A DNA stretch of 64,000 nt from Chloroflexota bacterium (lineage in GTDB: Bacteria > Chloroflexota > Dormibacteria > CF-121), in assembly GCA_005882775.1 (NCBI GenBank), contig VBDY01000123.1, positions 732-64,731 on the forward strand, in the 5' to 3' direction. A program made the translations under genes and the position numbers. Shown here one piece after another: positions 9,425 to 63,523 of this stretch (position 1 is its first letter; each line of letters opens with the position of its first letter). A model generated the notes under the pieces. It saw only the letters and a list, made by a program, of their open reading frames with translations, did not search any database and had not been told where the DNA came from.

Positions 9425-10837
9425 TTAGCGCTTGCGGGAGCGGGCGCGGCCGCGCATCCGGCCCTCGTTCATCTGGTCGACGTCATCGTCCTCGGCGGAT
9501 GCCTGGCGATTCGTTTTGAACGACTGGGAGAACGCGCCCACAAACTGGTCGCGCAATTCCATGGTCGACACCTCGAAGGCGTCCTTGAGCGTCCAGTGGT
9601 CGTCCGGCGAGTACTTCCGCTCGCAGGCCCAAAGGAGGAACTTGATCAGCCTCACCCGGGTGGCTGCGGCCAGCCGTCCGCGCTTCTTCTGTTTGCCGTT
9701 GCCCTGTACCTTTGCGCTCGACGGCGGCGGCGCCACCGTACCGTCCGACTTGCGCACGCCCCAGGCGGGAGCGGCAGGCGGCACGCCCGCTATCGGCGCC
9801 TGGGAGACAAGGCTCGCCCGAAGCGATCTCAGGTCGTCCTCGGGGGCCGAGGTCTTCGGTTCGGCGGCAGGCGGCGCCTGCGGAGCCGGTACGGCAGCTG
9901 CAGGGGACTGATATACGGGGGCTGCTTCCTTTCGCTTGGGGATGGGCATGGGCGGCACCGAGAAGCTCGGCGGAGTAACCGGCCGGGCCGGCACGGCCGG
10001 ACGAGCCGGCGGCATCTGCACCGGAGGCGCAGCCTGGGGATTCATGAAGGTGGGCTGGCCCGGCATTTGCGGCATGGGGTAGGGAGCAACCACAGGCTGC
10101 TGCGGCATCAGCGGCGGCATGGGCTGCTGGGGCACAGGGGGCCGCATCATGGGGGGTTGCTGCGGAGGGTAGGGCGGTTGGGGCTGCATCATCGGCGGTT
10201 GCGGCTGCATCATCGGCTGCTGCAGCGGCATGCCCGAAGGCATGCGTGGGGGTTGCATGCCAGCCCCGGGCGCCGGCTGATACGGGGCGTTGGGGTACAC
10301 CGGTGGAAAAGCTTGCGGGCCAGGCGGAGCCGGATAAGGCTGGGGCGGATAGCCCTGCCCCTGAGGCGGGGCCTGCCAGGCGGGTGTCATCCCAGGCTGG
10401 GGGGTAAAACGCGGGTTCACGGGTGCGACCTGCCGCTGCTGGTCGGGCGCGATGTAGGGCGACGCCGGGCCCTGGAGCACGGTCTGGCTCCGGCGGAGCA
10501 GGTCGAGCAGACGGCCCTTGTCTATATAAAGGTTGGAGTGCAGCTCCGGATTCGGGCCGGGCACGAACACGAACTGTCCGCTCTGAAACTCCCAGAGGAG
10601 ATCGAACGCCTGGCGCGCTCCGCGCACCCGGCCACCGCTGGCGTGGGTAAGTGCCCCGTTCTGAAAGGCATAGGTCCAGGACCCACGCGGCTCGGTGAGC
10701 TGGAGCGTGCCCGAGCCGCCACCGTTGACGACCTGGTCGAGCAAGCCCAGCAGGCCGACGCGGTCGATGGCCTGGACCTGTGGCTGGGTAGCCGTGGGCG
10801 CGCCGGGGCCCCCCTTCCCCTTGGCGAACAGCTTCAT
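9425..10837 (-). CDS. DUF4388 (PatA-N-like) domain protein with long Pro/Gln/Met-rich low-complexity region and conserved C-terminal basic domain
   Basis: N-terminal DRVGLLGLLDQVVNGGGSGTLQL...LLWEFQSGQFVF resembles DUF4388. It is followed by PQQPMMQPQPP repeats. The likely start is MKLFAKG at 10837, with a GGGAG SD 4 nt upstream. Confidence 0.6.
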   Translation of the reverse strand: MKLFAKGKGGPGAPTATQPQVQAIDRVGLLGLLDQVVNGGGSGTLQLTEPRGSWTYAFQNGALTHASGGRVRGARQAFDLLWEFQSGQFVFVPGPNPELHSNLYIDKGRLLDLLRRSQTVLQGPASPYIAPDQQRQVAPVNPRFTPQPGMTPAWQAPPQGQGYPPQPYPAPPGPQAFPPVYPNAPYQPAPGAGMQPPRMPSGMPLQQPMMQPQPPMMQPQPPYPPQQPPMMRPPVPQQPMPPLMPQQPVVAPYPMPQMPGQPTFMNPQAAPPVQMPPARPAVPARPVTPPSFSVPPMPIPKRKEAAPVYQSPAAAVPAPQAPPAAEPKTSAPEDDLRSLRASLVSQAPIAGVPPAAPAWGVRKSDGTVAPPPSSAKVQGNGKQKKRGRLAAATRVRLIKFLLWACERKYSPDDHWTLKDAFEVSTMELRDQFVGAFSQSFKTNRQASAEDDDVDQMNEGRMRGRARSRKR

Positions 10838-10885
10838 GCGCTCCCAACTATATCCCCGGCTCTCCGGCTGCCCCCCCAAGAACCG

Positions 10886-10913
10886 GTAACGCCTGTGTAA
10901 CTACCCGTTACCT
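10886..10913. repeat. Inverted repeat GGTAACG-N14-CGTTACC (with internal GTAAC), spanning the PRTase stop and the 5' region of the DUF4388 gene
   Basis: The perfect 7-bp arms are seen directly. Candidate operator; it shares the GTAAC/GTTAC core with the repeats at 5127-5145 and 22841-22851. Confidence 0.45.
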
Positions 10914-11536
10914 GGCGTCAGGAGGGACCGAACCTCGTCGTCACCGACCTGCGGCCAGTGCTCAAAGAAGTTCCCGACGGCATAGAAGGGCTCGGGCGTT
11001 GCCAGGCAGACCCACTCATCTACCAGCCGGGAAAGCCAGTCGGCCGTGTCTTTGGGGGCCACCGGCACCGCCAGCGTCACCCGCCTGGCGCCCCGGCGCC
11101 GGGCAGCCTCGACCGCCGCCTGCGCGGTCAGGCCGGTTGCAATCCCATCGTCAGTCAGGATGACCTGGCGGTCGGGCTCGAGGCGGGCGACTCCCTGGCC
11201 GAACTTCCCGACCCAGAGCCTCAGCTCGGCCCGCGTGCCATCGGCTTCGGCCTGCAGCTCCTCCTCGCTGAGCCCGAGCCTGCGGCTCAGGTTGTGGTCG
11301 ACTACGACGCCGGATTCGTCGTCGACCGCACCGATGGCAAGCTCCGGGTTGCCCGGCGCGCCGAGCTTACGCACCGGGCAGATACCAAGCGGTAGCCCGA
11401 GCTCCCGCGCAATCACGGCGCCGACCACGATGCCGCCCCGAGGTATGCCGAGCACCACCGTGTCCGCCGCGTGCGCGTGATGACGGAGCCGCTCGGCAAG
11501 CCGTTCGCCGGCATCGACCCGGTCGCGGAAAATCAT
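10902..11536 (-). CDS. Phosphoribosyltransferase-family protein (type I PRTase fold)
   Basis: 211 aa with VVLGIPRGGIVVGAVIARELGLP and VILTDDGIATG (PRPP-binding loop). Confidence 0.65.
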
Positions 11537-11563
11537 CCTGACTCCCCGCTCTACAATAGGCCG

Positions 11564-12079
11564 ATGTCGGCGGTGGTTGAAAAGATGCCGGGCCTGGGTG
11601 ACCTGGCGCCGGACTTCAGCCTGCCCGGAACGCCCGATGGCGACAAGGTCACGCTGGCCTCATTCCGTAGCAAGCGGCACGTGGTCCTCGTCTTTTACGT
11701 TTTCGATTTCAGCCCTGGCTGAACAAACGAGCTCACCTCCTTGCGAGGTGATCACCAGCAGTTCGAGAAGAACGAGGTCCAAATCCTGGCCATCAGCGTC
11801 GACCACATCTGGGCGCACAAGGCATACGCCAAGAGCCTCGGCGACCTTCCATTCCCCCTGCTGGCGGACTGGGATAAGTCGGTCAGTCGGACCTACGGGG
11901 TGCTTCGCGAGGAGACGGGCGCCGCCCGCCGGTCACTCTTCCTGGTGGACTACCGCGGCTATGTCCGCTGGCGAAACCCCACCTACGACTGGAAGAACGC
12001 GGAGCAGTACTCGGAGCTGATCGAGGCCACCCTCGCCCTCCCGAAAATTCCCATCAAAAAAGAAGAAGCCAGCTCCTGA
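11564..12079 (+). CDS. BCP/PrxQ-type peroxiredoxin with in-frame TGA at the peroxidatic-Cys position (candidate selenoprotein; otherwise a pseudogene)
   Basis: Two track ORFs (11471-11722 and 11741-12079) share a frame and are separated only by TGA at 11720-11722. The joined sequence ...VVLVFYVFDFSPG-[TGA]-TNELTSL...AISVDH...FPLLADWDK matches FYPKDFTPGCT of BCP peroxiredoxins with TGA in place of Cys. The start ATG at 11564 gives MSAVVEKMPGLGDLAPDFSL. Confidence 0.6.
11733..11751 (+). promoter_or_regulatory. SECIS-like hairpin (7-bp stem UCACCUC/GAGGUGA, loop CUUGC) 10 nt downstream of the in-frame UGA
   Basis: A perfect stem-loop is seen directly. Its position and the G/U-containing apical loop are consistent with bacterial SECIS geometry. 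Confidence 0.5.
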
Positions 12080-12085
12080 GCTGGC
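12050..12085 (-). terminator. Intrinsic terminator for groES (hairpin GCCAGCTC..GAGCTGGC followed by UUCUUCUUUUUU on the minus strand)
   Basis: The 7-8-bp GC-rich stem at 12068-12085 is followed, in minus-strand sense, by a U-rich tract. It overlaps the 3' end of the convergent prx gene. Confidence 0.5.
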
Positions 12086-12109
12086 CCCTTCCGTGCCGCG
12101 CGGCGGCGG

Positions 12110-12412
12110 TTAGCCCTTACCGTTTGCGACGACGGCGAGGATGTCCTTCTCGGACAGGATCAGGTATTCGGTCTCTTCGAGCTTGATCTCGCTCCCCGAA
12201 TACTTGGCGTAGACGACGCGGTCGCCGACCTTGACATCGACGGGCTCCCGCTTGCCGCTAGCCTCGATGAACCGGCCATTGCCGACAGCCTCGACCAAGC
12301 CTTCCTGCGGCTTCTCCTTGGCGGTGTCCGGCAGGACGATCCCGCTCTTGGTCATCTCCTCGCGCTCGAGCGGCTTGATCACAACCCGATCACCCAGTGG
12401 ACGTAGCTTCAT
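12110..12412 (-). CDS. groES: Co-chaperonin GroES (Cpn10)
   Basis: 100 aa: [14 protein letters not shown]...[15 protein letters not shown]...[13 protein letters not shown], canonical GroES. An AAGGAGG SD precedes the ATG. Confidence 0.9.
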
Positions 12413-12629: not shown

Positions 12630-13121
12630 ATGGTCAATCTCAAGAAAACCCTTGCCGCGTCTGCTCTGGCGCTGAGCCTGGCTCTGCCGGCGGGGACGAC
12701 GGCGTTTGCCGACTCGAACGCGACTTCCTGTCCACAGGTAGAGCAGACCTTTCCTTTCGTGCTGCCCAGCGGCATCCTTCCGGTAAGTGGTACCGGCAGT
12801 CTCGTTCTGTCGACAGAGACCGGTCAGAACGGCGTCTGCAGCGGGACATTTACTGCCGTCGTCGGCGTCACGCCGGTCGCGTTCGGAGCCTTTACGGCCA
12901 TCCATCGCGGTTCAACCGTCACGGTCTTCTTCCACACGACCACGGGCAGCCCCGTCGGCGCGCGTGGCGTGCTTTTCTATGACAGTTCGAGTGGCCACGG
13001 CGTGGTCGCCACCAAGATCACGGCTGCCGGCCAGTGCGCGTTCGTCATTGCGCGATTTGAGGGGAGCCCGGCGACCGGATTCAGCATTGTCGGAACACCG
13101 CTCGTTCTACCCTGCTTCTAA
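12630..13121 (+). CDS. Small secreted hypothetical protein (signal peptide, Gly/Thr/Ser-rich, 4 Cys)
   Basis: The N-terminus MVNLKKTLAASALALSLALPAGTTAFA is a Sec signal peptide. SD and promoter are present. No recognisable family. Confidence 0.55.
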   Translation: MVNLKKTLAASALALSLALPAGTTAFADSNATSCPQVEQTFPFVLPSGILPVSGTGSLVLSTETGQNGVCSGTFTAVVGVTPVAFGAFTAIHRGSTVTVFFHTTTGSPVGARGVLFYDSSSGHGVVATKITAAGQCAFVIARFEGSPATGFSIVGTPLVLPCF

Positions 13122-42329: not shown

Positions 42330-43514
42330 TTACTTGATGACCTTGGTGGCCACCCCGGCGCCCACGGTCCGGCCGCCCTCGCGAATTGCGAAGCGCATGC
42401 CTTCCTCGACCGCGATCGGGGTGATGAGCTTGATCTTCATGTTGATGTTGTCGCCGGGCATCACCATCTCCGTGCCCTCGGGCAGCTCCACCTCGCCGGT
42501 GACGTCGGTGGTCCGGACGTAAAACTGCGGCCGATAACCCTTGAAGAACGGCGTGTGGCGCCCACCCTCCTCCTTGGTCAGCACGTAGACCTGGGAGTCG
42601 AACTCGGTGTGGGGCTTGATCGAGCCGGGCTTGGCCAGCACCTGGCCGCGCTCGACCTCCTCGCGCTTGATGCCTCGGAGCAGGCAGCCGACGTTGTCGC
42701 CCGCCTGGCCGGAATCCAGAAGCTTGTGGAACATCTCCACCCCGGTGACCACGGTCTTGCGGGTGTCGTTGATGCCCACCATCTCGACCTCTTCGTTCAC
42801 CTTGACCTGACCCCGCTCGATCCGGCCGGTGACCACCGTGCCACGACCTTCGATCGAGAAGACGTCCTCGATCGGCATCATGAACGGCTTGTCCAGGGCC
42901 CGCTCGGGTACCGGGATGTAGCTGTCGACCGCGTCCATCAGCTTCATCACCGAGTCTTCCCACTGGGCGTCGCCCTCGAGGGCCTTGAGCGCCGAGACCT
43001 TGACCACCGGGATGTCGTCGCCCGGGAACTCATACCGGGAGAGCAGCTCCCGGACCTCGAGCTCGACCAGTTCCAGGATCTCGGGATCGTCGACAGCATC
43101 GACCTTGTTCAGGGCGACCACGATCCGGGGCACGCCGACCTGACGGGCAAGCAGGATATGCTCCCGGGTCTGGGGCATCGGCCCGTCGGTGGCCGCCACA
43201 ACCAGGATCGCGCCGTCCATCTGGGCGGCGCCGGTGATCATGTTCTTGATGTAGTCCGCGTGGCCGGGGCAGTCCACGTGTGCGTAGTGACGCTTGTCGG
43301 TCTCGTACTCGACATGCGCGGTCGCGATCGTGATGCCTCGCGCCTTCTCTTCCGGGGCGTTATCGATCGAGTCAAACGACCGGAACTCGGCGAATCCCTT
43401 CTTGGATAAAACCTTGGTGATGGCCGCGGTCAGTGTGGTCTTGCCATGGTCGATGTGACCGATGGTCCCAACGTTCACGTGCGGCTTCGTCCGCTCGAAT
43501 TTCTTCTTCGCCAT
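42330..43514 (-). CDS. tuf: Elongation factor Tu
   Basis: [32 protein letters not shown]... Only a 1-nt gap to rpsJ. Confidence 0.97.
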
Positions 43515-59343: not shown

Positions 59344-59419
59344 TGGCAGGGGTGGAGCGATTCGAACGCCCGACCGGCGGTTTTGGAGACCGCTGCTCTA
59401 CCAGCTGAGCTACACCCCT
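59344..59419 (-). tRNA. tRNA-Trp (anticodon CCA), CCA 3' end encoded
   Basis: Manual fold: acceptor AGGGGTG/CACCCCT, anticodon stem GCGGT/ACCGC with loop CUCCAAA, T-arm GGGCGTTCGAATCGCTC. It has the classic position upstream of secE. Confidence 0.9.
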
Positions 59420-63447: not shown

Positions 63448-63523
63448 GCCGACGTAGCTCAGCTGGCAGAGCAGCTGTTTTGTAAACAGCGGGTCGCCGG
63501 TTCGAATCCGGCCGTCGGCTCCA
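63448..63523 (+). tRNA. tRNA-Thr (anticodon UGU), CCA encoded
   Basis: Manual fold: acceptor GCCGACG/CGTCGGC, D-arm GCTC...GAGC, anticodon stem GCTGT/ACAGC with loop UUUGUAA, T-arm GCCGGTTCGAATCCGGC. Confidence 0.9.

Follow-up and report, generated by a model that had tools for sequence, protein, structure and literature searches.

A predicted selenocysteine-containing peroxiredoxin with a conserved in-frame UGA codon in Dormibacterota and related Chloroflexota

Results

The stretch of DNA analysed here, referred to as the window in the following, comprises 64,000 nucleotides of a Chloroflexota bacterium (contig VBDY01000123.1, positions 732 to 64,731; GTDB lineage Dormibacteria, CF-121) and has a GC-content of 64.9%. 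At positions 11564..12079 of its forward strand lies the gene under study, a predicted selenoprotein coding sequence (CDS) of 171 codons for a peroxiredoxin with one selenocysteine (Sec) at residue 53. Translation of 11564-12079 gives a single frame of 171 codons, which ends at its own stop codon (TGA 12077-12079) and contains TGA 11720-11722 as the sole internal stop; this UGA codon is predicted to be read as Sec and would provide the peroxidatic residue, U53. As a sequence-only reading of this DNA had noted, the open reading frames (ORFs) 11471-11722 and 11741-12079 share one frame and are parted only by TGA 11720-11722, and all statements of that reading on the sequence itself check out on re-reading. 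Its view of the joined product as a complete AhpC/TSA peroxiredoxin is borne out as well. With Cys put at the TGA, the Pfam family AhpC-TSA (PF00578) matches with 112.7 bits (cutoff 26; E = 1.3e-32), and the match covers residues 12-136 and profile positions 2-123 of 124, the domain thereby crossing the TGA.

The proposed coincidence of the TGA with the peroxidatic Cys was also recovered. In phmmer alignments to solved 2-Cys peroxiredoxins, FYVFDFSPG-C-TNE of the window stands opposite to FYPLDFTFV-C-PTE, and once the 13 nearest full-length homologues are aligned, the column of the TGA is a nearly invariant Cys. When the joined protein was aligned with Sec- and Cys-type homologues, a check that the sequence-only reading had suggested, the in-frame UGA paired with Cys (Sec/Cys pair). 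The codons of the active-site motif, V46-F-D-F-S50 (11699..11713, forward strand), specify Val for the Pro and Ser for the Thr of PxxxTxxC/U, by which the window motif V-F-D-F-S-P-G-U reads VxxxSxxU and not PxxxTxxU. Ser50 represents the required Thr/Ser three residues before the peroxidatic residue and is frequent among the nearest Cys homologues as well (FYPADWSPVC). The Pro seven residues before the peroxidatic residue is missing, its place being taken by Val46 in the window and by Val, Ile or Ala in nearly all Sec loci, whereas it is nearly invariant in Cys homologues. A tally of octapeptides found VFDFSPG-U in 96 loci and the Pro retained in only five Sec forms. Forms with Pro are FYPFDFSPG-U, FFPLAFTGG-U and FYPKDFTSG-U (loci L150:5865, L151:1499, L050:2980, and L163). 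As a few Sec forms do keep the motif Pro, its exchange for Val is derived within the Sec clade and not needed for the use of Sec. The codon of the conserved catalytic Arg, R123 (11930..11932, forward strand), forms an invariant column in three alignments; in 2-Cys peroxiredoxins its counterpart is the Arg of GIALRGLF. Cys is altogether lacking from the window protein, and across the family a second Cys is not conserved either. Since a conserved resolving Cys is missing, the protein would be a one-Sec enzyme which needs an external reductant for its recycling.

Concerning the type of peroxiredoxin, the sequence-only reading had assigned the product to the BCP/PrxQ-type. Membership in AhpC/TSA stands, but the BCP/PrxQ subtype is not established, as a profile built solely from the Sec clade scores BCP, 2-Cys peroxiredoxins and AhpE alike at 121-125 bits (BCP 124.7 and 123.1, 2-Cys peroxiredoxin 122.3, AhpE 121.4 bits; spread at most 3 bits). 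With the window sequence alone, Prx1-type structures score highest. A profile dominated by Cys homologues (the family together with its nearest Cys forms) has AhpE of Mycobacterium tuberculosis as its best match, end to end, with 179.8 bits (E = 2.4e-52). Among the NCBIfam models none reaches its cutoff; the best one is PrxU (NF040737) with 70.9 bits versus a cutoff of 270, and by this score the window protein is not a PrxU equivalog.

Homologous loci were collected from Dormibacterota and Chloroflexota genomes and from soil metagenomes down to approximately 38% protein identity. The genome loci originate from a scan of one genome per species, to which a scan of metagenomes added 80 soil loci, giving 131 loci; hundreds more matched beyond the more than 130 that were recovered. 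Homologues are present in metagenome-assembled genomes (MAGs) of Candidatus Dormibacterota and in grassland-soil MAGs named 'Chloroflexi bacterium CF_xx', and more distant copies in Limnocylindria, other Chloroflexota and Dehalococcoidia. All 49 genome loci evaluated have TGA at the codon in question (49/49), each time preceded by the conserved N-terminal half (APDFxLPGTPDG...FYVFDFSPG), and a stop is found at this codon in 79 of the 80 soil metagenome loci. Over all loci, TGA was counted in 130/131 and TGC in 1/131 (a distant homologue of the Cys-type), while neither TAA nor TAG occurred. Even homologues of only 38-40% identity keep the TGA, for example in FFPLAFTGG-TGA-AHELTS and FYVLDFTPG-TGA-KTELTE. 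Close relatives with TGC or TGT in identical flanks, which according to the sequence-only reading would have indicated a recent nonsense pseudogene, were not found among the 131 loci, and full-length proteins with Cys appear only at or below 49% identity.

A second, divergent subfamily of putative Sec-peroxiredoxins (FYVLDFTPG-U-KTELTEF, approximately 38-43% identical) was observed in Candidatus Dormibacter spiritus and in soil metagenomes (loci L053:2977, L153, L156, L158, L160, L162, and L165). Its hairpin downstream of the UGA is GACCGA-GUU-UCGGUC, with G in the first position of the loop.

In protein databases the family has a different appearance. The best approximately 60 protein clusters (55-98% identical) are all C-terminal fragments of 97-148 aa, covering the last ~53-67% of the query, and the respective gene calls begin at a TTG or CTG within the loop of the hairpin described below. 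The fragments are named 'alkyl hydroperoxide reductase subunit AhpC', 'mycoredoxin-dependent peroxiredoxin' (several from JGI) or 'redoxin domain-containing protein'. As all of these best clusters are C-terminal fragments, gene callers evidently stop at the same codon throughout the clade, and the fragment calls are a systematic annotation error.

Selection was assessed with 37 indel-free sequences of the Dormibacterota clade over 44 codons upstream and 51 codons downstream of the TGA. The ratio of nonsynonymous to synonymous substitution rates (dN/dS) is 0.12 upstream and 0.11 downstream, with synonymous rates (dS) of 1.20 and 1.08, respectively. Among 20 genes of the window TAA is the commonest stop (11 genes), followed by TGA (5) and TAG (4). 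The invariance of the TGA despite a dS above 1 and next to TAA as the commonest stop of the window argues that it is not a mere stop codon, which would have drifted. TGA serves as the normal stop of GatA, a GGDEF protein, UvrD, a YkuD protein and of the peroxiredoxin gene itself. The other 19 genes, including rpoB, rpoC, secY and those of EF-Tu and EF-G, do not contain any internal TGA, and their Trp is encoded by TGG. The richness in TAA stops was unexpected at a GC-content of 64.9%; many of the genes sampled, however, serve translation and are expressed at a high level.

Downstream of the UGA, the forward strand carries a hairpin resembling a bacterial selenocysteine insertion sequence (SECIS) element (UCACCUC-CUUGC-GAGGUGA, 11733..11751), with the stem 11733-11739/11745-11751 and the loop CUUGC at 11740-11744. 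This stem of 7 bp begins 10 nt after the TGA, just as the sequence-only reading had described, and belongs to the minimum-free-energy (MFE) fold; folded alone, the hairpin has a free energy of -9.4 kcal/mol. The codons +4..+11 relative to the TGA (CTC ACC TCC TTG CGA GGT GAT CAC) exhibit a dS of only 0.11 compared with 1.08-1.20 elsewhere, an approximately tenfold drop, and represent the window of eight codons with the lowest synonymous entropy in the gene (Mann-Whitney p = 8e-6). Each of the eight is essentially fixed across the 37 species, often in a codon that is rare elsewhere in the gene (TTG 37/37, GAT 37/37, CGA 32/37, GGT 30/32), whereas the codons just before and after this segment vary freely. 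In an alignment of 48 loci, 90% of the cells of the seven pairs are paired, versus 26-55% if the 3′ arm is slid along the alignment, and three of the seven pairs show compensatory changes. At an equal distance from the UGA, other subfamilies likewise form a hairpin, the arms of which differ in sequence (ACCUCC/GGAGGU, ACGUCC/GGACGU, GACCGA/UCGGUC, CCUCCU/AGGAGG); their 3′ arms encode different amino acids. A covariance model found the element in 71 loci, its matches being driven by the primary sequence. No second copy of the hairpin motif is present in the window besides the element itself.

Bacterial SECIS elements are characterized by a distance from UGA to loop of 16-37 nt, a loop of 3-9 nt, a stem of 4-16 bp, an MFE of at most -7.5 kcal/mol and a G in the first two loop positions, with some elements failing this model (PMC13188914). 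The sequence-only reading had ascribed the expected geometry to the hairpin. This is true for the spacing (17 nt), loop (5 nt), stem (7 bp) and energy (-9.4 kcal/mol), but not for the G in the first two loop positions. Loops starting with G, namely GUU and GGA, do exist in some sister subfamilies. A possible extended lower stem (11715..11758, forward strand), in which CUGG/CCAG and UGA/UCA would enclose the UGA, is predicted with -14.4 kcal/mol; its UGA:UCA helix is paired in 94% across loci with no pair changed on both sides, and CUGG/CCAG is not conserved, which makes for weak support.

The arms of the hairpin show a further likeness. Within 11733-11754, the 5′ arm and the loop (UCACCUCCUU) reproduce the 3′ tail of the 16S rRNA, the canonical form of which is ..AUCACCUCCUUA, and the 3′ arm (GAGGUGAUCA) represents a strong Shine-Dalgarno (SD)-like string that would be sequestered by the hairpin and has no start codon 5-10 nt further on. 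Arms of the type CCUCC/GGAGG occur in several sister subfamilies and not in others (GACCGA/UCGGUC). As some subfamilies do without them, this likeness to the 16S tail and to an SD sequence probably arises as a side effect of the Thr-Ser codons ACC UCC.

Upstream of the gene, a -10-like hexamer, TACAAT, is located at 11552..11557 on the forward strand, 6 nt before the ATG at 11564, and no SD sequence precedes this start, from which a leaderless mRNA may be inferred. The combination of -10-like hexamer, 6 nt and ATG (CTACAATAGGTCGATG) is shared by more than 30 Dormibacterota loci, in which it is conserved, and a sister group of seven loci exhibits TATAGT, followed by 7-10 nt and ATG or GTG. Even where it lies in a different reading frame, the hexamer is retained. 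Distant Chloroflexota homologues have a GGAGG Shine-Dalgarno sequence 5-9 nt before the start instead. The recurrence of both arrangements among Dormibacterota loci agrees with the proposal of a leaderless gene by the sequence-only reading and supports a predicted leaderless mRNA in Dormibacterota, with a transcription start deduced from the DNA. A simple sigma-70 scan did not yield a full pair of -35 and -10 elements.

The neighbouring gene on the other side of this region encodes a phosphoribosyltransferase (PRTase; 10901..11536, reverse strand; the identical gene in L001 matches the Pfam family Pribosyltran). It is divergent and starts at 11536, 27 nt from the start of the peroxiredoxin gene, in line with the earlier description. 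Convergent to the peroxiredoxin gene is groES (12110-12412, reverse strand; Pfam Cpn10 in a syntenic locus). The order of PRTase, peroxiredoxin and groES is kept in L001-L004 and L168, and near-identical soil metagenome contigs in ENA (CRIT18-1 scaffolds) show this order, too. A GC-rich inverted repeat spans the stop codon of the peroxiredoxin gene (12061..12092, no strand assigned), gives a terminator-like match of 14 pairs on the minus strand and is separated from the end of groES by 18 nt. Probably it is a bidirectional terminator shared with this gene.

Some further features of the window may be mentioned. Between uvrD and the PRTase gene lies an ORF of 484 aa rich in Pro and Gln (9425-10879, reverse strand) without any Pfam match, for which the syntenic contigs also have a gene call, of 484, 477 or 119 aa in length. 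An ORF of 163 aa at 12630-13121 (forward strand) has a signal-peptide-like N-terminus (MVNLKKTLAASALALSLALPAG...), falls into no Pfam family and is likewise called in syntenic contigs; at the matching position of L003 a gene of 245 aa with an EAL-domain is called. Positions 30890-55640 are occupied by a conserved block of translation and transcription genes (secY, ribosomal proteins S3 and L2, EF-Tu, EF-G, rpoC, and rpoB), and tRNA genes are found at 59344-59419 (tRNA-Trp, reverse strand) and 63448-63523 (tRNA-Thr, forward strand).

Discussion

With an in-frame UGA at the peroxidatic position being invariant among so many loci, with purifying selection acting on both halves of the gene and with constraint at the RNA level on the hairpin, it appears hardly doubtful, as judged from the comparative data, that the window contains a recoded and functional peroxiredoxin gene. 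The residue inserted at the UGA is very probably Sec, delivered by a SelB-type mechanism. The preference of the sequence-only reading for Sec recoding over a nonsense pseudogene is thereby upheld, considering TGA in 130/131 loci, a dN/dS of 0.12 for the N-terminal part and a dS of 0.11 for the codons of the hairpin. Its statement that peroxiredoxins with Sec instead of Cys are established in bacteria also agrees with the literature, in which they are listed as a known selenoprotein family (PMC13188914) and, in a survey from 2016, as present in 78 organisms (PMC5029168).

For this gene of a Candidatus Dormibacterota soil bacterium, the mechanism that we propose is the standard one. The mRNA would probably be leaderless and begin at or beside the ATG at 11564. 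Once a ribosome arrives at UGA 11720-11722, the hairpin at 11733-11751 would recruit SelB carrying Sec-tRNA(Sec), and Sec would be inserted in place of termination, yielding the full protein of 171 residues. In this protein, Ser50 and Arg123 could activate U53, whose selenolate would reduce peroxides, and the resulting selenenic acid might be recycled by an external thiol partner.

Several observations weigh against Sec insertion directed by a SECIS element. The stability of the hairpin is ordinary (z = -1.69 versus dinucleotide shuffles), 23% of the synonymous recodings of the same peptide fold at least as well, and for 16 representatives of the subfamilies the mean z is -0.48 under synonymous recoding. 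Applied to an alignment of 48 loci, RNAalifold gave no consensus with the hairpin in it; distant subfamilies shift their register by 1-2 nt in an alignment locked to codons. In the fixed register of the covariance-model alignment of 71 loci the covariation is modest, with 3/7 pairs compensatory and 79% of the cells paired among 61 distinct sequences. The loop CUUGC, having its G in the fourth position and none in positions 1-2, breaks the consensus of bacterial SECIS elements. As the energy of the fold is unexceptional, the argument drawn from the hairpin rests on its sequence-specific constraint. What exceeds chance is the invariance of the TGA together with the suppression of synonymous change and not the energy of the fold.

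The searches for a Sec machinery point in the same direction. Genes for tRNA-Sec were searched with ARAGORN and Rfam in the window and with ARAGORN in 51 related loci and 80 metagenome loci, and those for SelA, SelB and SelD by tblastn with the E. coli proteins over the window and related loci. Neither selA, selB, selD nor tRNA-Sec was present in the 64-kb window and 10 kb upstream or in approximately 290 kb of genome loci and 689 kb of metagenome loci, absences which are uninformative on whole genomes. The sole match to E. coli SelB was EF-Tu (in the window at 42354-43472). SelD proteins in plasmid records, which were sought as a closer bait, originate only from Proteobacteria, Actinobacteria, Firmicutes and haloarchaea. 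A search of the available literature found no paper tying Dormibacterota to selenocysteine, and another one on AhpE and selenocysteine returned nothing relevant.

The lack of any gene for Sec biosynthesis in the DNA searched would be in line with a recoding of the UGA to Cys or to another residue, promoted by the hairpin, either by a tRNA-Sec-like tRNA that carries Cys and is delivered by SelB or by stimulated read-through with a near-cognate tRNA. For some bacteria, an insertion of Cys at UGA that depends on SelB and employs tRNA-Sec-like tRNAs has been suggested, and the invariance of the TGA, the selection on both sides and the constrained hairpin fit any site-specific recoding equally well. 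Cys, however, can be encoded by plain TGC or TGT, as in many of the Cys homologues, and keeping a costly signal in more than 100 lineages seems sensible only for a residue that has no other way of being encoded. A peroxiredoxin with Sec as its peroxidatic residue, in addition, has an experimental precedent in PrxU of Eubacterium acidaminophilum, known since 2001 (cited in PMC13188914). We consider such a recoding to a residue other than Sec improbable.

Rejected as well, and still less probable than this, is a split gene, in which the TGA would act as a true stop and a N-terminal peptide of 52 residues would be accompanied by a C-terminal protein of 112 residues starting from TTG 11741. The annotation of the same C-terminal ORF in dozens of assemblies would fit, as would the TTG at codon +7 in 107/131 loci and the nearby SD-like GAGGUGA. 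This string, however, comes after the TTG and is enclosed in the hairpin, and in divergent subfamilies codon +7 is TTT, TTC, CTT or TGG and hence no start codon. The catalytic residue would be missing from the C-terminal product, purifying selection acts on the N-terminal part just as on the remainder, and a plain stop would have drifted to TAA or TAG, yet TGA is retained in 130/131 loci at a dS above 1.

On the basis of a single sequence, a lone in-frame stop in an otherwise intact gene does resemble a fresh pseudogene, and a recent nonsense mutation or an assembly error on the catalytic codon would have to be considered. The comparative data refute both and leave them with a negligible probability: 130 independent loci, which stem from many assemblies and species and reach down to 38% protein identity, share the TGA, either side of it has a dN/dS of about 0.1, no orthologue with Cys exists above 49% identity, and the divergence of the loci (dS above 1) excludes copies of one contaminant sequence. 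A genome-wide reassignment of UGA to Trp or Gly (codes 4 and 25), for which nothing but the in-frame TGA itself speaks, is refuted within the window and can practically be set aside, as TGA ends four other genes as well as the peroxiredoxin gene, 19 other genes lack an internal TGA, and Trp is encoded by TGG. Pseudogene, assembly error and codon reassignment are thus excluded by the combination of TGA invariance, selection on both halves and normal TGA stops.

Sec-containing peroxiredoxins as such have been known before. New is a large clade, abundant in soil and uniformly bearing the predicted Sec codon, in a candidate phylum without recorded selenium biology. The family also stands outside of the curated models and is systematically shortened in annotation, its motif is VxxxSxxU, and the loop of its SECIS-like element is off the consensus. 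An abundant protein family of soils is by this recorded in public catalogues only as catalytically dead fragments of 97-148 aa, and with no curated model available for it, the capacity of Dormibacterota to respond to oxidative stress as well as their use of selenium are under-called. Dormibacterota are aerobic oligotrophs of soils. Sec insertion at the UGA predicts that they have and depend on a Sec machinery, which would tie their defence against peroxides to the selenium supply of the soil. The family furthermore offers a natural test of what Sec gives to a peroxiredoxin, as the motif Pro is nearly always lost in Sec forms and a resolving Cys is missing, and it adds a well-sampled SECIS-like element that breaks one rule of the bacterial consensus. 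The current understanding of selenoproteins is not overturned by any of this.

A more far-reaching idea, which we regard as speculative and rather doubtful, is that this peroxiredoxin constitutes the anchor selenoprotein of an aerobic soil phylum. Dormibacterota and nearby Chloroflexota might then keep a Sec machinery mainly for one obligately Sec-dependent enzyme, in which the motif Pro is relaxed (VxxxSxxU) and which employs a distinct class of SECIS elements with no G at loop positions 1-2 and with arms resembling anti-SD and SD sequences. If this were true, such a class would imply a divergent mode of RNA recognition by SelB.

Among known systems, the PrxU/Prx selenoprotein family (PF00578, TxxU; NF040737) shares with the window protein the AhpC/TSA fold family, the (here predicted) Sec in place of the peroxidatic Cys, and an in-frame UGA with a stem-loop within the coding region. 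Unlike PrxU, the window protein reaches only 70.9 of the 270 bits of the model, has VxxxSxxU instead of PxxxTxxU, is 171 aa long and lacks a conserved second Cys; its host belongs to a candidate phylum of aerobic soils, whereas that of PrxU is an anaerobic Firmicute. AhpE of M. tuberculosis (Rv2238c; PDB 1XVW, 4X0X), a mycoredoxin-dependent 1-Cys peroxiredoxin, is similar in length and in having a single redox residue without a resolving Cys, and the distant Sec forms of L050-L052 with F(P/V)LAFTGG-U resemble its FPLAFTGIC. Unlike in AhpE, residue 53 is predicted to be Sec and not Cys, the main clade has Val in place of the motif Pro, and the profile of the Sec clade ties AhpE with BCP and 2-Cys peroxiredoxins. 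Proteins of the BCP/PrxQ type (PDB 2YWN, 2CX3) belong to the same size class and are the top solved structures for the profile of the Sec clade, matching end to end, with a margin over AhpE and Prx1 of only 1-3 bits, which decides nothing. At the level of the RNA, the hairpin resembles the bacterial SECIS element as described by the bSECISearch model, with E. coli fdhF as its archetype, in being a stem-loop located just downstream of the UGA and inside the CDS.

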